A stretch of 26,959 nt of DNA. Source: a virus. Lineage: Duplodnaviria; Heunggongvirae; Uroviricota; Caudoviricetes. The translations under genes and the position numbers were made by a program. Within the stretch, counting starts at the first letter, position 1, and each line of letters starts with the position of its first letter. Below, in pieces: positions 5,249 to 25,638 of the stretch. The notes beneath the pieces were generated by a model, which saw only the letters and a list, made by a program, of their open reading frames with translations, had not been told where the DNA came from and did not search any database. The stretch covers positions 1-26,959 of the IMG/VR virus record IMGVR_UViG_3300033069_001022; one strand, written 5' to 3'.

Positions 5249-7417
5249 TTAATGCCACCAAAAATTTGTTATAACTGCTTCAGCTTTCATTTTCACTTTT
5301 TCACAAAAGAACTGAGCACCTTGTTCCATACATTCCTCTATTATTTTTCTACCTTCTTCTCTAAAATCAGGAGATGTTTCTGCCATTGATTCATCATGTA
5401 TAAGAGAAGTTAATCCTATTTTATCTTCTAAATCCTCTTCAATCTGCTTTTCCCTAAACAAAATACCAGCCATTTTAGTCTGACTAGCTGCTAAACCCTG
5501 AATTCTAAAATTAAGAGCATTTCTTTCAAGTTTACCTTTTAAAGAGAAATATTCACTCCAGATTTCTTTAATCTCTGGATGCTCTTCGTAAAGTTTCTTT
5601 TTAAATACCTTTCTATCTTCTACTTTCATCCTACGATAATTTTCTGGAAAATATGACCAAGCTTTTTTACCTAACTCATTCATTCTCTGAAAATTAGGAT
5701 CAAACCATCTTCTACCTGTTATTTTATCAATTTCAATAAAGCCTTTTTTAATAACATCTTCCTTTGCTTTATCAAAATCCTCTTTAAGAGTAGGAATAGC
5801 CTCAAAATAACCATCTATAAATTCCTGAGCCACTTCTTCATCCACTCCAAAATCATCCTTTAAAGTATATGCAGAGCCTCCATAAGCTATTTTAAAGTTA
5901 ATATTCTTGGCATCCTGTCTTTCCTTTGGATGAGTTTTCTTAGTTACTATTAGTTCAGGGTCTTTTCTGATAACCCTAAACATTTTTGTAGCTACAAAAC
6001 TATGATAATCATCTCCAAATATAGGATGTCCATCATTAAAGAAAGATAACATATCCTTATCCCCACATACTTCTGCTAATACTCTACTTTCTTGAGAAGC
6101 ATAGTCACAATTAATCAAATTACCTATAAAAGCCATTCTATATTCCTTTTCTCCAGGTATATTCTGGACATTAGGATTATTAGAAGACATTCTACCAGTA
6201 TTCATAATCTGGCTAAAACTAGTATGTATTCTTCCAGTAATGGGATGAATATGTTTTAACCAGTCTTCACCAAAAGTAGTAACAGCTTGTTCACTTTTCT
6301 TTAATAAGAGATAATTTAAAATTAAATCCGAAATATCATTTATATCTGTCTCTGTATCAGACATATATAACTCTTTATACTCTGAATTAAGCAATTTAGT
6401 AAGAGATTTAGCTCCTACAGTATACTCCATAGTTTTTGTCTGTTTACTTTTCTCTTTAGGACAAATACCAAGATGTTTAAATAACTCAATAACCTGATCA
6501 GAACTAGACCATTGTATAGAACAAGAGGCTGCTGAATTGAATAAATCAACAGGATTAACAAATTTAGGATAATTATTAATAATGTGATTATTCAGCTTAT
6601 CCAATCTATGTTGATAGATTACTTTCTTTTTCTCATATACCTCTAACCACTGTTCAGGCTTAAAAGCCATACCCTTTAATTCTATATCAGCAAGGACTAA
6701 ACAAAAAGGATTTTCTATCCTTTCATGTAAAAACATAGGATTATACCCAAATCTGCCTTTAAGTTGTTTTTGTCTTATTTTTAAGGGAAATTCTACATCA
6801 TCAGAACCATATAATACCTGTTCTAAAGTAAAAGGTTTATCTCCTATGTTTAAGAACCCAAGTCTGGTACTTTTATCTACATAAACTATTTCATCATCTC
6901 TCTGATTAAATAAATCAAGTTCTTCAGCATTTTCTACTCCTAAATATCTACCTGCTAGAGCAGCTAAAGAATACCTTAAACCATCATGGTTACTTTTGCT
7001 CCAACCTAAACCATTGGTAAGATTTATATCACAAAGCATAGTATCCCATATCTTTCTGAACCTTATTCCATAATTATACTTAAGGTGTTTAGCCTCAAAT
7101 TTGGCATTATGCATTACATATAATGTGTCTTTACAATTTTTAAATAATGAAGCTATTTGTTCATTAGAAAAAATTCTAGTATCAATTACGTAGCATTTTT
7201 CCAAATTTCCTATTTGTAACATTATCACTTTTGATAAATAAGGGTCCAAACCTGCTTTATATACTTCCTCAGAGTATGTTCCTTTCTCAAATTTTCTAGT
7301 AGTCTCAATATCTAGTCCCAATTCTTTTTCTTCTTGGCAGAAATTTATAGCCTCCTCTATGGTAGCGTATTTTTCTAAACCTTCTATTTTATAATTACTT
7401 ACGAAATAAACTTCCAT
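5249..7417 (-). CDS. polA: DNA polymerase family A with 3'-5' exonuclease domain (no 5'-3' exonuclease)
   Basis: ExoI GLDIETT, ExoII HNAKFE, ExoIII YGSDDV; motif A DYASQESRVLA, motif B RQDAKNINFKIAYG, motif C LIHDE. Confidence 0.95.
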   Translation of the reverse strand: MEVYFVSNYKIEGLEKYATIEEAINFCQEEKELGLDIETTRKFEKGTYSEEVYKAGLDPYLSKVIMLQIGNLEKCYVIDTRIFSNEQIASLFKNCKDTLYVMHNAKFEAKHLKYNYGIRFRKIWDTMLCDINLTNGLGWSKSNHDGLRYSLAALAGRYLGVENAEELDLFNQRDDEIVYVDKSTRLGFLNIGDKPFTLEQVLYGSDDVEFPLKIRQKQLKGRFGYNPMFLHERIENPFCLVLADIELKGMAFKPEQWLEVYEKKKVIYQHRLDKLNNHIINNYPKFVNPVDLFNSAASCSIQWSSSDQVIELFKHLGICPKEKSKQTKTMEYTVGAKSLTKLLNSEYKELYMSDTETDINDISDLILNYLLLKKSEQAVTTFGEDWLKHIHPITGRIHTSFSQIMNTGRMSSNNPNVQNIPGEKEYRMAFIGNLINCDYASQESRVLAEVCGDKDMLSFFNDGHPIFGDDYHSFVATKMFRVIRKDPELIVTKKTHPKERQDAKNINFKIAYGGSAYTLKDDFGVDEEVAQEFIDGYFEAIPTLKEDFDKAKEDVIKKGFIEIDKITGRRWFDPNFQRMNELGKKAWSYFPENYRRMKVEDRKVFKKKLYEEHPEIKEIWSEYFSLKGKLERNALNFRIQGLAASQTKMAGILFREKQIEEDLEDKIGLTSLIHDESMAETSPDFREEGRKIIEECMEQGAQFFCEKVKMKAEAVITNFWWH

Positions 7418-8331
7418 TTTTTACACACCTCCTTTTTTCTATCTAAAAATATATTTGAATCTTTATATAAGTATTGTACTATTTTTTTTATCATTTTTAC
7501 ACCACCATAAATTAAGCTATAAGTATTTTGTCCTTTATGTTTATATAACTTAGTTTTTGAAATATTTAATTCATTTATTAGTAATTCTTGAAATTTTTCT
7601 ATAAAAACATAATTACTAACAATGCTAAAAGTGGGTCGTTTAGAAGAAGTTAAACACCCATCCCCATCAAAATACCCCCTCATAAAATGACTTTGTAAAT
7701 ATAATGGTACTATATCAGTATCAGGAAATACAATTTTACTAGACTTATCACTCATACAGCCTAATTTTACTAAATCACTTGACATTTTCTTAGAGTATAA
7801 AGTTAAAGAACAGGCTTTAGTAGTAATTACATTTGCTATTTTACCTTTGTAATTAATTTCTTTAGCAAATTTTTCTAAATGAATTAAGTCATTTTCTTTT
7901 AAAGTTATATTAATTCTATTCCCATTTTTGTGAATACTACCATCAGCAAAGATAAAACCTAACCAATAAGCTTTTTCTTCTGTATCTATAGTTGCAAAAA
8001 AATTTTCATTAAAAAAATGAAATCTTCCAGTGACTGAAGAATCCCACTTAAAATTAGCTTTTTTAAGAACTTCTTTAATAGTGGATTCTGAAACTTTAAA
8101 AAATTTTGCAACTTCACTAATTTTATTTAGTTCTTTATATTTTTCAATAACTTCCGCAGAATCTAAAACAACTCTTTTATTATTTGTCCTTAGATGTATC
8201 CCTTTTATTATTCTTTGTATGGTTTTTACAGATACATTAAACTCTATAGCCAAATGCATAATAGAATTACCTTCTAATCTTTTTATTATAACTTCTTTTT
8301 GTTGATTTTTGTTTAATAATGGTTGTCTCAT
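7399..8331 (-). CDS. free-standing double-motif LAGLIDADG homing endonuclease with N-terminal HTH repeats
   Basis: AYWLGFIFADGSI and HFMRGYFDGDGCL motifs; start placed at ATG 8331 (MRQP) because the track's TTG start lies inside the -7 promoter box. Confidence 0.85.
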   Translation of the reverse strand: MRQPLLNKNQQKEVIIKRLEGNSIMHLAIEFNVSVKTIQRIIKGIHLRTNNKRVVLDSAEVIEKYKELNKISEVAKFFKVSESTIKEVLKKANFKWDSSVTGRFHFFNENFFATIDTEEKAYWLGFIFADGSIHKNGNRINITLKENDLIHLEKFAKEINYKGKIANVITTKACSLTLYSKKMSSDLVKLGCMSDKSSKIVFPDTDIVPLYLQSHFMRGYFDGDGCLTSSKRPTFSIVSNYVFIEKFQELLINELNISKTKLYKHKGQNTYSLIYGGVKMIKKIVQYLYKDSNIFLDRKKEVCKKWKFIS

Positions 8332-8337
8332 AATAAG

Positions 8338-8369
8338 CAAAGATATAGCGTATTTATATTATAACCAAT
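8338..8369 (-). promoter_or_regulatory. Bacteroidota primary-sigma promoter for the LAGLIDADG gene/polA
   Basis: (A)TTG (8369-8366), 20-nt spacer, TATCTTTG (8345-8338); matches the TTTG-N19-21-TAnnTTTG consensus except one base in the -33 box. Confidence 0.6.
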
Positions 8370-8435: not shown

Positions 8436-8800
8436 CTAAACTTTAACAACTCTCTTACCTATAACATCAATCATATCAACAATCTGTTGCACTTCTTCAT
8501 GACTGACAGGCACTTCTTCATCCTGACACTTTATAACACTATAATCCCTTCCCTTTAGAGCTTCTTGTAATTCTTCCAAAGAATAAGCATGGTATTCCTC
8601 ATCAAAATGTACTATATCTACATCCTCATCCATATACTTACCATCTTTTTCTTCTATTACAGCAGCTATAAACATTTCACTGACTCTCATCTTATTGCCA
8701 TCATAAACAGGAACACTCCTGATTTTAGCAGGATTTACAAGGCATAATACTTTTGTATCACCAAAACTTCCTATTCCAAAACTTCTGGAACCAACATGTA
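8436..8800 (-). CDS. rIIB: rIIB-like protein, exon 2
   Basis: After the terminal G at 8801 the frame reads (L)HVGSRSFGIGSFGDTKVLCLVNPAKIRSVPVYDGNKMRVSEM..., joining exon 1 CSAG to give the rIIB-type CSAGLHVG motif; the 84-aa track ORF is only its tail. Confidence 0.85.
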
Positions 8801-8944
8801 CAATTTGTTATCGTAAAGGCTTTTTATCCTCTACTTCTATATCTTATTAGATTGATATAGTTCAGCATACGTCTTCATCCTATTTCACTATAGGATGTTG
8901 GAAACTCTTGGGGATGTTTTATTCTCATTTAAGAGGTTCAATCC

Positions 8945-9775
8945 CTATGCGTTACGGAGTTTAGCAATCTTTTTACTTACTGCAAACACCTCGGCGTTGA
9001 CTACAAGAAACTTATTATACTTTCTTGGAAGAGAATAATTAGAATTTTTATACATATTATCAAGAAATGTCTTACAATCAGATATATTCTCAATATCCAG
9101 TCTCCAACAATTTCCTTGTTTTCTTAGTTTACCTACTTTAGTAAATTTATGTATATCTTCTAATATTTGTCTATCCCCATTAGACAGACATATTCTACAA
9201 GTTTTATAACCATTCTTAGTGACTTTTATACCTAAATGACCATCTCCATCAAAATAACCTCTGATAAAATGCCATTTCAAACTGTCTTCTATTTTTGGAA
9301 GATTAATAGGTTTAAAAGTCTTTCTCTCTACTATACCATATCTAGCTAAATCTGATACTATTTTTTCAGAAGAAATTCTTAAAATCATCTGATTTTGTCT
9401 ATTCTTGGCTCCTTTAGTATTATGATTTGTTTTAATAAGAGAATCAGGTGATATTACACTCCTAAATAGATTTATTATATATAAATCTTGTTCAGCAATA
9501 CATAGTCCAAATCTTCCTTTATCATAAACACAACCATCCGCTACTAAAAACCCTAAAAGATATGCTTTAATTTCACTATCTATAACACTAAATATAGTAT
9601 GGTCTTTTTCTATTTTTCTAACTTGTACATTATATTCTATTCCTAGTTTTCTCAAAGCTCTACCAACTGATGAAGGACAGACATTATATTTGTCTGCCAA
9701 CATATTCAGTGTAAATCCTTGATTGTTAAGCTCTTGTATAGTTTCTTTATTATAAATTGGGCTTTGCTTTTTCAT
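8945..9775 (-). CDS. intron-encoded double-motif LAGLIDADG homing endonuclease
   Basis: AYLLGFLVADGCV and HFIRGYFDGDGHL; probable start ATG 9775 (MKKQ), downstream of an internal promoter; C-terminus overlaps the ribozyme core. Confidence 0.88.
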   Translation of the reverse strand: MKKQSPIYNKETIQELNNQGFTLNMLADKYNVCPSSVGRALRKLGIEYNVQVRKIEKDHTIFSVIDSEIKAYLLGFLVADGCVYDKGRFGLCIAEQDLYIINLFRSVISPDSLIKTNHNTKGAKNRQNQMILRISSEKIVSDLARYGIVERKTFKPINLPKIEDSLKWHFIRGYFDGDGHLGIKVTKNGYKTCRICLSNGDRQILEDIHKFTKVGKLRKQGNCWRLDIENISDCKTFLDNMYKNSNYSLPRKYNKFLVVNAEVFAVSKKIAKLRNA

Positions 9776-9792
9776 TTTTCCGTAATTATACC

Positions 9793-9824
9793 CAAAGCTA
9801 CAACAAATATTTGAAACTACCAAA
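9793..9824 (-). promoter_or_regulatory. Bacteroidota promoter inside the rIIB intron
   Basis: TTTG (9824-9821), N20, TAGCTTTG (9800-9793). Confidence 0.7.
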
Positions 9825-9886
9825 TATTTTCACCGATATTTTCCAATTTTCTTTAATTTATTACTAAATTAAGGGGCTACACATTA

Positions 9887-10913
9887 ACCCAGCAGAACAA
9901 TCTTCTCTACTATCAATATCTACCTCTTCTTCAGGAATAGAATATACTGCCCCAATTCTAATATCCATAGTACGAGTATGAGCATCTGTATATCTGTTTT
10001 CTTCTAAAGAACCTAGATTGTTATATAACTCCTGTAGATTACCCATATTATGACCAATCCCATCACTTTGTTGAATTGGTTCTCCTTTGTATAAAGTAAA
10101 TGAGCCATCATCTTCTCCCCATACATAATAATTAGCAGGAGATTTCTTCCACTTTTTAACTTTAAAATATTCTGTAGAAACAAATTTACTTAATTCTTTA
10201 TCACTTTCTCCTACAGATACTATACCTCTATACATGATAAGATTACCAAGAGAAGTTATTCTAATATCTTGATTTCTAATAAATTTAAGAGCATCCTCTC
10301 TGCTACTTTCAATAGGATTTAAAGCAAGTTTAAAAGTAAACAGTTCCAAGGAGTTATATTGAGTCAAAAGTTCTTCATACTCCCTTCCACTATATAATGG
10401 ATCTATCCATGCAAGATTCATTTTTTCTACAATCTCTATAAAAGCAGCTATTATAACTGCTGGTAAAGGCATAGGAAGTTTTTTAAGATAAATTTCATTG
10501 TCTTTTACTTCAAAATCAGGATGATTTTCAAGACAACCCCATTCTTCCCTAACTAATTCTTTTTCTTGCCTGGTTTCCACATTGTCTACACTAGTAATAA
10601 TAACTTCTTTTGGTAAGAATAAACTAATAATATCACTTACACTATAACAGTTCTTTACTTTCTCATATAATTCCTTACCACCTGCACTATCACTAAATAC
10701 AGTACCATCATGTAAAGTAACAAATACAGCCTGGTCTATAACCATAAGCTTCTTGTACAATTTCTGCTTAATTTCTAAGCTTTCCTTAATTTGCTCATCT
10801 ACACTAGCAAGTTGTTTCTCCAACAGAGAGGCTCTCATCTCTTCATTTTTTACCTGTTGTTCAAGTAATTTCTTTCTTTTTGGGCTTAATAGCCAGTCAA
10901 AATTAAAATTCAT
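9887..10913 (-). CDS. rIIB: rIIB-like protein, exon 1
   Basis: Follows rIIA; G..IMYRGIV, YTDAHT.TMDIRIG.VYS.P..EVD.D...DCSAG motifs; the track's terminal MCSPLI* is intron read-through. Confidence 0.85.
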
Positions 10914-10915
10914 AA

Positions 10916-11143
10916 TTAGTATATTTCTGTTTGTTTATAATTTAATAACTCTCGTAATTCCTCTATTTCACTGTTCTTTTCATCTATTTCATTCTTTAAG
11001 TCATTTATAGTGTCTTCCAAATCATCTATTTTAGAATCCTTATCAGCTATCTCATCTTTTAAATTACTACATTCATCCCTTAACTCTTCGTTTTCACTCT
11101 CAAGATTATCTACTGCATCTATAATATCATCTTTATACGACAT
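10916..11143 (-). CDS. acidic coiled-coil protein with TEIY tail
   Basis: Heptad-like D/E-rich repeats (LESENEEL..L.DEI..KD..I.DLEDTI.DL..EI); lies between rIIA and rIIB. Confidence 0.7.
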   Translation of the reverse strand: MSYKDDIIDAVDNLESENEELRDECSNLKDEIADKDSKIDDLEDTINDLKNEIDEKNSEIEELRELLNYKQTEIY

Positions 11144-13415
11144 TTACAAGTCCCTCCTCTACTTCTACTGTATATTGAACAGCTTGGTCTTCGTAAACTT
11201 CATCAGGTACTTTTAAAGTTAATTCCATATCTGTAACCATTTGATGATTAATTTTCTGCCATTTTAACATGATATATACTAGATTTTTAGCAATTCTCAG
11301 ATGTTCTTCATTATAATTTCTTTCTAAGTTAACAAGGGATAAAAAACCAAACTTACCCATAATTTCCCTAAACTCTTTAACATCTGAATAGATAGTATGA
11401 TCCCATAAATTTGCTTCCTTAGATACTTCTAGTACCATATTAACAATATCTCTTGAAGCACGTATATAATGTTCCTCTTTATATTCCTCAAGCTTTTCTT
11501 TTAATTTTTCATACTTAGGAAATGCTTTATATATTATCTCCTCATTATCTGGTACAACATCTAATACATCATTTATAAGAGCTGCTGTAGCAAATCTGGC
11601 AAAAGGCTTACTTTTTGTGAATTCTTCCATATTTTTAAAATTCTTTAATTTATCAATATATTTTATTTCTCTAGGACTAATAAATATAAATCTTACATTT
11701 GGAAACATAGAAACATAATGCTGTAAATATGCTTGGGCCTTGTCTACCAGTATATGTAATTTTCCTAATTTGTGTAAATTGGCTATATCTACAACTGTTT
11801 TGTCAAAAACTACTCCACTATCTGCTCTAGAACTATCCCTTGCTATATTTAGAGTAATTTGTCCTTTTTGTTTGTTAAGAGGAATATAATTACCTGTAAT
11901 TATACCTTTTTCTCTGTTTTCTTTTGCTTTTAATTTCTTATCTGCTAACCAATCTATGTACTCCTGTTTATTTTCCAAACCTGTTTCATCATTCCATCTA
12001 CTACATATTTGATTATTAACAAATTGAAACTCTTTTATTAAATCTCTCCACTTTTCTTTACCGACACTCCTTAAAAATAGATGTTGTATATACCAATATA
12101 GATTTTTAGGAGGATTTCTTTCTATATATACAATTCGTTTCCCATACTTTTCTCTTAGAAATTGTTTTAAATTGCCATTTAGATTAAAATCTATTAAAAC
12201 AACATTTTTAGGAAGATCTATTGACATATTAGTAAGCTCATAAACTATGTGCTTTTTCTGCCATATTCCTTTATGATTTTCATAAGCTACAACATTATAA
12301 TGTTGTAAAATTTTAGCAAAATTATCCTTATAAAATTTAGGAGACATTAAAGAAATACCTTCAATTTTTGGTTGAGAAACAGATTTTGTAGAAAGTGGTA
12401 TAATACTATCTATACAGAAATTCTTTTCATTAATCATAACATCATGACTATATTTATTAATGTGGTCAAATGCTTCTGGAAATGTCTTGAATTCTGCAAT
12501 TTCTTCATTATACTTATCTACAAACCAGTCAGCTACTTTGGTTATTTTCTCCAAAATCAGAGCTTTGGACTCTGGTGTAAACATTAAGCTTTCCCTGGAT
12601 ATAGTTGGATTAATCTTGTCACTTAACTCCAACTTAATAGCTACTGGTATATGAACATCAAGTATACCTAGTTTAGAAAAATCCATAGGATAATAAACCT
12701 CTCCTAAACATAGGTGTAGTTTTCTATCAGTAATTACTTCTGACCACTTAAACAGCTCATTTTCATATATTTTATAGTCATTATTAAATCTGGAGTAGTC
12801 ATCTGTTATAAAAGTATTAGAGAAATAAGAAAGTTGTTCTCTTATCTTTTTAGAAAAATAACCAGCATCATGTGGCTTTACCTCTAATATCATTTTTACA
12901 CCATTTGGCTCAGAGGTATCTTGTTCATGTAATAAATCTATTTTATTACCAAATTCTCCTTCATACATAATATAAGTCCTCTCCTTACCATTTTTTCTAC
13001 ATCTAAAAGTAAATGAGTTGGTATAAGCTAAACCACTTTTAAAGCCCACTCCTAAAGCCCCTAATTGTGTATTATCCTGTCTTTTTGTTGAGCAAAGATA
13101 TTTCTTAATAACATTCTCAACATCTTGGTCATCAAGTCCTAAAGCTGTGTCTTCAACAGAGAATTCCCACTTACTATAGCTTAATTTAGTCAAATTAACC
13201 AAAATAGGATTATTAACACCAGCTTTTACATTTGCATCCCATGCATTACTTACCCATTCTCTGATTGGGCTACCAATAGGATCTGAATAGATATTCTTAC
13301 TCAAGAAATTCATAAGAATACCTATACTACTCTCATCTATAACCATGTCAATACTCTGACTGGCTTCACCGTCTAATTCTACTTCTACTTGTTTTTGTTG
13401 ATTTTCTATAATCAT
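11133..13415 (-). CDS. rIIA: rIIA-like protein (N-terminal GHKL/HATPase domain)
   Basis: IYSD...IREWVSNAWDA, EDTALGL, STK..DNTQLGALGVGFKS motifs; 760 aa; upstream of an rIIB-like gene. Confidence 0.88.
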   Translation of the reverse strand: MIIENQQKQVEVELDGEASQSIDMVIDESSIGILMNFLSKNIYSDPIGSPIREWVSNAWDANVKAGVNNPILVNLTKLSYSKWEFSVEDTALGLDDQDVENVIKKYLCSTKRQDNTQLGALGVGFKSGLAYTNSFTFRCRKNGKERTYIMYEGEFGNKIDLLHEQDTSEPNGVKMILEVKPHDAGYFSKKIREQLSYFSNTFITDDYSRFNNDYKIYENELFKWSEVITDRKLHLCLGEVYYPMDFSKLGILDVHIPVAIKLELSDKINPTISRESLMFTPESKALILEKITKVADWFVDKYNEEIAEFKTFPEAFDHINKYSHDVMINEKNFCIDSIIPLSTKSVSQPKIEGISLMSPKFYKDNFAKILQHYNVVAYENHKGIWQKKHIVYELTNMSIDLPKNVVLIDFNLNGNLKQFLREKYGKRIVYIERNPPKNLYWYIQHLFLRSVGKEKWRDLIKEFQFVNNQICSRWNDETGLENKQEYIDWLADKKLKAKENREKGIITGNYIPLNKQKGQITLNIARDSSRADSGVVFDKTVVDIANLHKLGKLHILVDKAQAYLQHYVSMFPNVRFIFISPREIKYIDKLKNFKNMEEFTKSKPFARFATAALINDVLDVVPDNEEIIYKAFPKYEKLKEKLEEYKEEHYIRASRDIVNMVLEVSKEANLWDHTIYSDVKEFREIMGKFGFLSLVNLERNYNEEHLRIAKNLVYIMLKWQKINHQMVTDMELTLKVPDEVYEDQAVQYTVEVEEGLVNVV

Positions 13416-24300: not shown

Positions 24301-24593
24301 TTTTTAAAATATGTATTGTTTAAAACTGCTTCATAATCAGATTCCCTAATATCTTGTTTTTTAATTAGTTCTTTAAAAGTACCCACTTCAGGTTGAAAGG
24401 CAAGTCCTATTCTTATATCATCTGAGCCATAACTATTTTTTAGTATTTTAAGGCTCCTATATTTCTTTTTACCCTCATAATCTCTTAATTTAGCTAGATC
24501 ATAACCAGAAGGACATTCTACTTTATATCTCATAGGGTCAAAAAGACTTAGAACTACATCTGCATTTTCCTGTGTAGAGCCTGTCTCTTTAAA
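24297..24593 (-). CDS. DnaB-like replicative helicase, exon 2
   Basis: FKETGSTQENADVVLSL..ILKNSYG (SF4 motif H4/arginine-finger region); the track's Met is the intron's terminal AUG. Confidence 0.88.
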   Translation of the reverse strand, partial: FKETGSTQENADVVLSLFDPMRYKVECPSGYDLAKLRDYEGKKKYRSLKILKNSYGSDDIRIGLAFQPEVGTFKELIKKQDIRESDYEAVLNNTYFKK

Positions 24594-24812
24594 CATTTTG
24601 TTATCATAGAAGCTCTTTATCTTCTATATCTGTAATTTTTTATATATTTACAGTTCAGACTATCTCTTCATCTTTTTAAGATGTTCCGCTTTCTTGGAAG
24701 AATTATAGCATCAGCATTATCTGTTAAGCATCACTTCTAGTCGTTAGGCATTTATAAGTATTTCTACTTAATTTAGCACGGGATTGTCCATTTCACTATG
24801 GAGTTTCCCCGT

Positions 24813-25568
24813 TTAACGGAATTTATCGAGAACTTTATATAACATACAATCTATTCCTCTAACATAAGGACTTATAATCTGAAAAAATAAACTTATAGAT
24901 TTTTGTTTAACTCTTATACTATTATTTCCTTGAACAGTAGCTATAATATTAAACTTATTCTTTAAAAGAATACAAAAATCTTCTAACTCTTCTTTTTTAA
25001 AAGAGCAAGTTGATATAGTTGTAGTGTATTTAGAATAGTTTCCATCATCCATATACATATAAGCTAAAGATATAGCAGTAAAATTCTGCTGTAAATAATC
25101 TATTGGTAGAATTTTAATTCCTTCTATATAGAAAATATCTCTTAAATCCTTTAGCTCTTTATATGATAATGATGTATAAGTTATCTTTTTATAAATTTTT
25201 CCAGATCTTTTATCAGTATTTTGTACCTCTTTTAGGTAAGAAGACTTAATAGGTTCTAACTTTTTTACTTTGTGCAACAAATAATCTCTCTGTTCTAAAC
25301 AATGAGCAAAATTAATATAGGAAGAATTACCTTTATTAGAAAGGTAAGCATCTCCTAATATCATTCCAATTAACATTTGTTTTTGAAATGCTTTTAACTT
25401 TACTCTGTTAGATTTTATTTTATGAGGCTTGAGAGCATATTTATCACATAAGTACTTTAAAGTGGTTCTAGGAATATTAAGTAATTTAGAGACTTTTCTA
25501 TTTCCATTACCTTCTTTCCATAACTTTTTAATTTCTTCTATCTTATGTTCGTGATTACATTTTATCAT
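24813..25568 (-). CDS. intron-encoded LAGLIDADG endonuclease (LAGLIDADG_2-like) with N-terminal HTH
   Basis: QMLIGMILGDAYL, HC..Q.DYL..K, ISLAYMYMDDG; the ORF lies in loop L1 and its 3' end encodes the IGS. Confidence 0.88.
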   Translation of the reverse strand: MIKCNHEHKIEEIKKLWKEGNGNRKVSKLLNIPRTTLKYLCDKYALKPHKIKSNRVKLKAFQKQMLIGMILGDAYLSNKGNSSYINFAHCLEQRDYLLHKVKKLEPIKSSYLKEVQNTDKRSGKIYKKITYTSLSYKELKDLRDIFYIEGIKILPIDYLQQNFTAISLAYMYMDDGNYSKYTTTISTCSFKKEELEDFCILLKNKFNIIATVQGNNSIRVKQKSISLFFQIISPYVRGIDCMLYKVLDKFR

Positions 25569-25572
25569 ACCA

Positions 25573-25604
25573 CAAACATAGGTACTAAATACTGAATTTC
25601 CAAA
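25573..25604 (-). promoter_or_regulatory. Bacteroidota promoter inside the helicase intron
   Basis: TTTG (25604-25601), N20, TATGTTTG (25580-25573); ATG 4 nt after the -7 box. Confidence 0.7.
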
Positions 25605-25638
25605 TAATAATTGTTAAATTGTTGTTAATACTTTGTCA

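Follow-up and report, generated by a model that had tools for sequence, protein, structure and literature searches.

A group I intron with a LAGLIDADG endonuclease gene predicted in the rIIB-like gene of an uncultured phage

We analyzed a 26,959-nt stretch of DNA (the window, taken at its full length; positions 1 to 26,959 of IMG/VR record IMGVR_UViG_3300033069_001022) from an uncultured, metagenome-derived phage of the Caudoviricetes. An rIIB-like gene is encoded in this stretch in two pieces, and the DNA that separates them (9886..8801) is very probably a group I intron of the IA type, mobile and capable of self-splicing. Coordinates are those of the window, with the rIIB-like gene, the intron and the flanking genes read on the minus strand throughout. 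The central features are:

9887..10913, minus strand: exon 1 of the rIIB-like gene, 342 codons plus T9887, the first base of a split Leu codon
8801..9886, minus strand: predicted group I intron, subgroup-IA-like, 1,086 nt (covariance model, blastn and fold)
8945..9775, minus strand: LAGLIDADG homing endonuclease open reading frame (ORF) of the intron, 276 aa from the ATG at 9775
8436..8800, minus strand: exon 2 of the rIIB-like gene, the last two bases of the Leu codon, 120 codons and a stop

The rIIB-like gene and its exon junction

On the minus strand, exon 1 ends with TGT TCT GCT GGG T at 9887 and exon 2 begins with TA CAT GTT GGT at 8800. Past 9887 the frame of exon 1 stays open for seven codons (LMCSPLI) and then meets a TAG at 9866-9864; in the ORF list this appears as a 349-aa protein (10913..9864) with the C-terminal end REDCSAGLMCSPLI before the stop. 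Upstream of 8800 the frame of exon 2 has three open codons, to 8807, preceded by a TAA at 8810-8808. An ORF of 84 aa (8690..8436) starts in this frame with the ATG at 8690, and codons 1-36 of exon 2 are without a start codon of their own. A scripted join of 10913..9887 with 8800..8436 gave 1,392 nt, that is 463 codons with a single terminal stop, reading VDIDSREDCSAGLHVGSRSFG across the junction (DCSAG-L-HVGS; in a longer stretch, VDIDSREDCSAGLHVGSRSFGIGSFGDTKV). The predicted spliced DNA is GCTGGGT/TACATGTT. As TA follows both junctions, three cut positions are possible, all giving an identical mRNA. Only one of them has U as the base preceding the 5′ cut and ends the intron with G, and the same choice aligns G8801 with the terminal G of 17 relatives of the intron, in agreement with the earlier statement that the intron ends in G.

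Results of the profile searches pointed to the same junction. Two PHROG RIIB families match the last ~38 residues of exon 1 and continue in exon 2: in family 609 the end of exon 1 corresponds to profile positions 956-992 and the start of exon 2 to 994-1052, and in family 2886 the corresponding positions are 243-283 and 285-381. The single profile position missing in both is the split Leu codon. Judged by the sequence, the two pieces are one rIIB-like gene of 463 aa, joined exactly at 9887/8800. An original prediction made from the letters of the window had given these exon ends, the junction CSAGLHVG and the 463-aa product; they hold base for base, and homologues and the related contig L033, described below, read across the junction. 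For annotation this means that the 349-aa and 84-aa ORFs belong to one 463-aa gene, which gene callers will truncate.

The interrupted gene had been named as rIIB in the original prediction, and we came to the same identification from three lines of evidence: PHROG profiles, tblastn matches and the adjacent rIIA gene. Profiles of five PHROG families, each named RIIB lysis inhibitor, hit an intact homologue (P0002) with E values from 5.5e-20 to 2.4e-5, while Pfam and NCBIfam gave no name for the rIIB-like gene. A tblastn search with P0002 found matches in 2,093 phage records. Among the 40 matches listed, most fall on genes annotated as rIIB or rIIB-like, and the annotated ones include N4-like phages, actinophages and the crAss-like IAS virus; exon 1 alone, used as a tblastn query against the phage collection, gave no match at 1e-5. 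The rIIA-like gene lies upstream of the rIIB-like gene, with one small ORF between them. We know of no biochemical description of the rIIB protein.

The similarity among rIIB proteins is limited to a core of about 100 residues, and the PHROG RIIB matches of P0002 are confined to residues ~301-395. With its position at residue ~342, the intron falls centrally within the one block that is conserved throughout the family. Five residues around the site (C336, G339, L340, H341 and G343) are invariant among eight relatives; CSxG-L-HVG stands out as the centre of conservation in the rIIB family, in agreement with the earlier claim of an insertion in the most conserved motif of rIIB.

To relate the window gene to uninterrupted alleles, we used a search of the protein collection and a scan of IMG/VR with a degenerate pattern for the spliced junction. 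The former returned 45 relatives of the rIIB-like gene, mostly of 430-473 aa, and in the intact homologues (447-473 aa) the motif DCSxGLHVGS is unbroken. The closest of these, P0002 and P0003 (460 aa, 76% identical to the window gene), read DCSxGLHVGSRSFGIGSFGDTK without a gap where the pieces of the window gene abut. The IMG/VR scan led to two contigs, L033 and L034. L033 carries an uninterrupted 460-aa gene, 79% identical to the spliced window gene in protein and 81% in DNA, within the same gene order as in the window (rIIA, a small ORF ending in QTEIY, rIIB and DNA polymerase I). Its empty site reads GATTGTAGTAGTGGAT/TACATGTGGGTTCC. When the 36 start-less codons of exon 2 were compared with L033, we found seven synonymous differences and a single non-synonymous one. 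By this pattern of substitutions the start-less codons are under purifying selection; differing almost only synonymously, the segment is evidently translated, which argues for splicing in vivo. Pattern scans of IMG/VR for the 5′ end of the intron and for the junction of intron and exon 2 gave chance matches only, and a search for related loci found four distant ones, none of which (0/4) carries an intron of the family found in the window.

The genes around rIIB showed some further features. The rIIA-like gene and its neighbor are:

11133..13415, minus strand: rIIA-like gene (phrog_612 RIIA, 3.3e-50; HATPase_c_3, a GHKL ATPase domain, 5e-7)
10916-11143, minus strand: small acidic coiled-coil ORF between the rIIA-like and rIIB-like genes, with the C-terminus ...QTEIY

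The counterpart of the small ORF in L033 (2854-3096) likewise ends in QTEIY. Two rIIB homologues from short contigs, P0013 and P0040, stop after KKWKKS..NY at about residue 245-258; this may represent a second site of interruption in rIIB or simply diverged ends.

The intron RNA and its family

The RNA between the exons was assigned to a family of phage introns by sequence similarity, covariation and a covariance model. In a blastn search against GenBank phages, window positions 8797-8973, from the end of the internal ORF to exon 2, were 72-80% identical to sequences in 33 phage records, and a second query found family matches in at least 59 GenBank phage records. In every record opened the match falls between the two halves of a split gene, and an endonuclease is often annotated between these halves. 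The split gene encodes a tape-measure protein in Staphylococcus phages 6ec and PT1-1, Clostridioides phage phiCD211, Clostridium phage phiCP13O and Streptococcus phage phiJH1301-1, a terminase in Staphylococcus phage IMEP5 and a RecD-like helicase in Bacillus phage PJN02; in crAss-like phages it encodes a helicase (cr118_1), an ATPase (cr6_1) or the major capsid protein (cr128_1). The family thus has a very broad range of host genes.

The elements of the predicted RNA structure are:

9890-9885 with 9879-9874, minus strand: P1, GGGU/UA (the slash marks the 5′ splice site) with UAGCCC (sequence reading and minimum-energy fold)
9884-9880 with 8800-8796, minus strand: P10, AUGUG in the loop of P1 with UACAU, the first five bases of exon 2 (sequence reading)
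9853..9872, minus strand: P2, an 8-bp stem with a GUAA tetraloop (fold)
9840..9846 with 8904-8898, minus strand: P3, UUGGAAA with UUUCCAA, a perfect 7-bp complement across the ORF
9831..9836 with 8996-8991, minus strand: P4, UCGGUG with CGCCGA (fold; position conserved in the family)
9805..9829, minus strand: P5 hairpin of 9-10 bp (minimum-energy fold)
8956..8990, minus strand: P6 stem-loop, with the loop motif AAAAG common to relatives
8950-8946 with 8869-8865, minus strand: P7, GCAUA with UAUGC (model alignment)
8945-8941 with 8915-8911, minus strand: P7.1, enclosing a small variable hairpin
8860-8854 with 8843-8837, minus strand: P9 (alignment and model)
8834-8828 with 8819-8813, minus strand: P9.1 (alignment and model)

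An unconstrained fold of the 5′ piece of the window (9895-9777) joined to the 3′ piece (9030-8792) recovered P1, P2, P3, P4, P5, P6, P7.1, P8, P9 and P9.1. P1 holds a U9887·G9877 wobble at the 5′ splice site; this helix and P10 lie at the bases that the original prediction had given for them. P7 encloses P7.1, the small inner hairpin (8935-8924), P3′ (8904-8898) and P8 (8897-8876). The endonuclease insert is placed 3′ of the P5 hairpin, between P5 and P4′, and the intron ends in a conserved tail, GAUAACAAAUUG, followed by the terminal G8801. By the extra helix (P7.1) between P7 and P3′ the predicted intron is one of subgroup IA.

We then examined whether relatives maintain these pairings. RNAalifold on 12 members with an unbroken ribozyme returned P2, P3, P4, P5, P6, P7.1, P8, P9 and P9.1; at 47 of 59 pairs, both partners have changed and pairing is maintained. 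P7 was recovered when the 3′ half was folded alone, which can be explained by the usual pseudoknot that P7 forms with P3. The P2 hairpin of the relatives has GAAA-type loops and compensatory changes, P3 covaries in the 12 relatives with an unbroken core, and P6 shows a compensatory change at 9 of its 10 pairs. For a count of pairs we aligned 18 sequences, the window intron and 17 relatives in other phages. In this alignment 96.1% of cells are paired, vs. 70.3% in shuffles (none of 500 reached the observed value) and 30-47% with slid partners; 31 of 39 helix pairs carry compensatory changes. The paired fraction is 100% for P7, 98.9% for P7.1 (4 of 5 pairs compensated) and 93.5% for P8, with compensatory changes in each. 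P7, which had been described as covaried from the window alone, occurs in three variants: GCAUA/UAUGC in 12 members, GCGUA/UACGC in 5 and GACUA/UAGUC in 1. Its first pair, G8950-C8865 in the window, is G-C in all 18 members, and this invariant pair would bind guanosine.

A covariance model of 164 positions and 28 pairs (R1) was built from the 17 foreign introns only, with the window excluded. R1 matched the 3′ core of the window intron (8800-8955) over its full length with 138.8 bits and an E value of 4.4e-33. The similarity of the core is far beyond chance.

The same model detected a second member of the family in the window, in a DnaB-like helicase gene:

24594-25637, minus strand: second group I intron (R1 match at 24593-24747, 84.2 bits, E 1.9e-19; P7 GACUA/UAGUC)
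24813..25568, minus strand: LAGLIDADG ORF of the second intron (phrog_11023, 9e-19), different from the ORF of the rIIB intron

Exon 1 of the helicase gene (26412..~25638) ends ...EPRLED and exon 2 starts from 24593 with FKETGSTQENADVV; the 5′ splice site of this intron was placed by reading frame only. Over the other 93 kb of the genome R1 found no further copy of the family. Among the foreign hosts, two introns in close succession are apparently present in the tape-measure gene of Clostridioides phage pCD1602_4 and in that of phiCD211. The 16-nt family start is found at two places in pCD1602_4, about 530 nt apart (L011, 1864 and 2393), and in phiCD211 an annotated Intron_gpI feature follows the family member after 24 nt (L014, 2344-2628 and 2652-2917).

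Endonuclease genes, mobility and alternative readings

The ORF within the rIIB intron matches Pfam LAGLIDADG_3 (PF14528; 4.6e-12, in two stretches), LAGLIDADG_1 (PF00961; 1.1e-5) and phrog_4645 (1.9e-47). Its frame is uninterrupted, with the motifs LLGFLVADG and IRGYFDGDG and the acidic residue kept in both. With the ORFs that the related introns of cr6_1 and phi116 contain, it shares 30-32% identity. A TTG at 9823, inside the P5 hairpin, would extend the protein by 16 residues to 292 aa if used as the start. At the other end, the last ~25 codons run through P4′, P6 and the 5′ strand of P7. Type and position of the ORF vary within the family: PT1-1 and phiCD211 have none, 6ec has an HNH gene in an extended P5, the LAGLIDADG genes of cr6_1 and phi116 lie upstream of P2, as do the ORFs of PJN02 and Lak-A1, and the LAGLIDADG gene of the rIIB intron stands 3′ of P5. 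The family has thus acquired endonuclease genes more than once.

Outside the intron, a further gene of this kind was found:

7399..8340, minus strand: free-standing LAGLIDADG gene with N-terminal HTH domains, of the same PHROG family as the intron ORF

It is located 100 nt downstream of rIIB, where it follows the rIIB terminator hairpin and overlaps the start of the DNA polymerase I gene; its product is 26% identical to the intron-encoded enzyme. L033 is without this gene, and there the polymerase gene follows directly after rIIB. Just upstream of the intron ORF we noted a box resembling an extended -10 promoter element, which reads TGGGTATAAT or TGGTATAAT and is present in the window (9785-9794, minus strand) and in the introns of IMEP5 (L015, about 1590) and phiCP13O (L016, about 1040). 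This suggests that endonuclease cassettes may bring their own promoter.

The distribution of the intron among related rIIB genes is patchy. The closest relatives (P0002-P0004, L033 and L034) are uninterrupted and lack the intron, while two further homologues break off at CSSGL. In P0005 (about 75% identical, from four contigs) CSSGL is followed by KCVASL, which resembles the read-through of the window, and P0009 (48% identical) ends exactly at CSSGL; both were seen as protein only. Such scattered occurrence at a single codon, in lineages that have diverged, is what homing to a conserved target usually leaves behind.

The proposed course of events, in which catalysis and splicing are deduced from the RNA, would be as follows. 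The pre-mRNA would fold into P1-P10, and a free guanosine docked at P7 would attack the bond after U9887, held in the U·G wobble of P1. Once released, the 3′ end of exon 1 would be aligned by P10 and would attack the bond after the terminal G8801, and ligation of GGG-U to UA-CAU would restore a single 463-aa rIIB-like protein. The putative endonuclease, for which the L033 site is a candidate target, would by analogy cut the intron-less rIIB of co-infecting relatives at CSxG-L-HVG, and repair would copy the intron into the cut gene (homing).

Several observations weigh against a functional group I intron at this place. Rfam, RF00028 included, gave no match to the window region either at the gathering threshold or at E<=10, so that the check with Rfam group I models, suggested with the original prediction, failed for the intron as it did for the relatives tested. 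The proximal P5 pairing of the relatives (GGC/GCU) is without a clear counterpart in the window, the one weak point of the structure, and the 950-nt insert 3′ of the P5 hairpin makes for an unusual P4-P5 junction; no convincing stem closing the ORF insert was found in the fold of the window. As the ORF overlaps P4′ to P7, translation and folding would also compete on the same RNA. The weight of the missing Rfam match can be judged from the behavior of RF00028 towards the family. At E<=1 it matched none of the eight relatives tested, and at the gathering threshold it missed the family copies in nine loci searched and detected none of the 18 members, finding only an unrelated second intron in the tape-measure gene of PT1-1. 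RF00028 misses the relatives equally, which indicates a blind spot of the model and not a defect of the window copy. This gap leaves the family under-annotated in Staphylococcus, Clostridioides, Bacillus, Streptococcus, Lak, cyanophage and crAss-like phages, and R1 finds its members.

The missing Rfam match, the proximal P5 pairing that is not evident and the large insert oddly placed beside P5 would fit with a relic, an intron that no longer splices and leaves rIIB as a pseudogene or as a source of a 349-aa N-terminal product, its similarity to the family being due to recent ancestry. A relic would also be in keeping with the fact that T4 can do without rIIB in the usual laboratory hosts. Yet all core helices are intact, the R1 score lies within the range of a full member, P1 and P10 fit exactly this exon context, the endonuclease ORF retains its frame and both acidic residues, and the start-less codons of exon 2 have nearly all kept their meaning relative to the intron-less allele; we therefore hold a relic to be improbable. 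Alternatively, the gene could have been split by a free-standing endonuclease cassette, with the halves translated separately and assembled without RNA splicing. The LAGLIDADG gene at 7399..8340 shows that such cassettes insert in this genome, and the ATG at 8690 in the frame of exon 2 offers a start for the second half. The most conserved block, HVGSRSFGIGSFGDTKVLCLVNPAKIRSVP, is nevertheless located upstream of this ATG, start-less and under purifying selection, and what flanks the ORF is a ribozyme, conserved and covarying, instead of an intergenic spacer, which makes a split gene more improbable still. The LAGLIDADG domains would also be compatible with an intein or a group II intron, since they are known in inteins and in a few group II introns. 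The topology of the RNA is that of group I, and we regard this last reading as next to negligible. As candidates in their own right, the intein was rejected on a stop seven codons past the junction, an ORF in another register with its own start and the lack of a Hint domain, and the group II intron on the lack of a reverse transcriptase domain and of a group II RNA match in the Pfam and Rfam searches. A mobile, self-splicing intron of group I thus remains the reading that we strongly favor.

On a far more speculative level, the intron and its endonuclease might act as a weapon between co-infecting phages, in which cutting of rIIB in intron-less relatives biases inheritance of the whole rIIA-rIIB-polymerase segment, competition of ribosome and ribozyme, given the overlap of the ORF with P4′ to P7, might control rIIB, and rIIB itself might be strongly selected. 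We consider this extended scenario rather unlikely as a whole. If it were true, repeated invasion at the same codon in lineages 48-75% identical would mark rIIB as strongly selected in these phages.

Relation to known phage introns

The td, nrdB and sunY introns of phage T4 are the classical self-splicing introns of subgroup IA2, with homing-endonuclease ORFs looped out of the core. They interrupt genes of nucleotide metabolism and encode enzymes of the GIY-YIG or HNH type; T4 also carries rIIA and rIIB. The intron described here shares with them the group I assignment and the endonuclease ORF, but differs in host gene and type of enzyme. The order of helices is that of RF00028, and the J8/7-P7′ signature is recognizably related: it is AAGAUAUAGUC in the RF00028 consensus, AAGACGUAUGC in the rIIB intron and GAUAGUC in the second intron of the window.

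Closer parallels are found in crAss-like phages, in which group I introns are reported to be dense (Yutin et al., 2021; PMC7886860). Those introns were found via endonuclease domains, LAGLIDADG being labelled as an intron-encoded endonuclease, and reside in the genes of the major capsid protein (MCP), PolB, primase, ATP_43b and RNA polymerase; the text of that paper mentions neither rIIB nor rIIA. Like the intron of the window, they belong to group I, carry LAGLIDADG genes and split conserved phage genes, and in GenBank the crAss-like phages cr6_1 and cr118_1 have introns of the same RNA family. The means of detection differ, namely protein domains in that study and RNA structure in ours. The original prediction had presented rIIB as an unusual host that is not known as a described insertion site. 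This stands in so far as our literature search found no paper describing an intron in rIIB, but it was overstated given the known crAss-like introns, the wide range of host genes and the two other homologues (P0005 and P0009) that end at this site. Hence our claim of novelty is a modest one: the element is of an ordinary kind for such phages, and what the literature searched had not described is its host gene. It leaves the understanding of how such elements work unchanged. Lists of the genes that host phage group I introns usually name replication and structural genes, to which rIIB adds an accessory one (lysis timing or anti-exclusion).

The introns of phages of Gram-positive bacteria are likewise close to that of the window. 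The 3′ cores of the introns in 6ec, phiCD211 and phiCP13O are 72-80% identical to it in DNA, and P6, P7, P7.1, P8, P9, P9.1 and the tail GAUAACAAA(U)UG are shared. Introns of subgroups IA1 and IA2 were described in tape-measure genes of prophages and in other genes, each inserted where the interrupted gene is most conserved (Tourasse and Kolsto, 2008; PMC2504315). The window intron agrees with them in its subgroup IA assignment and in its position in the most conserved region of the interrupted gene, and differs in the gene that it interrupts.

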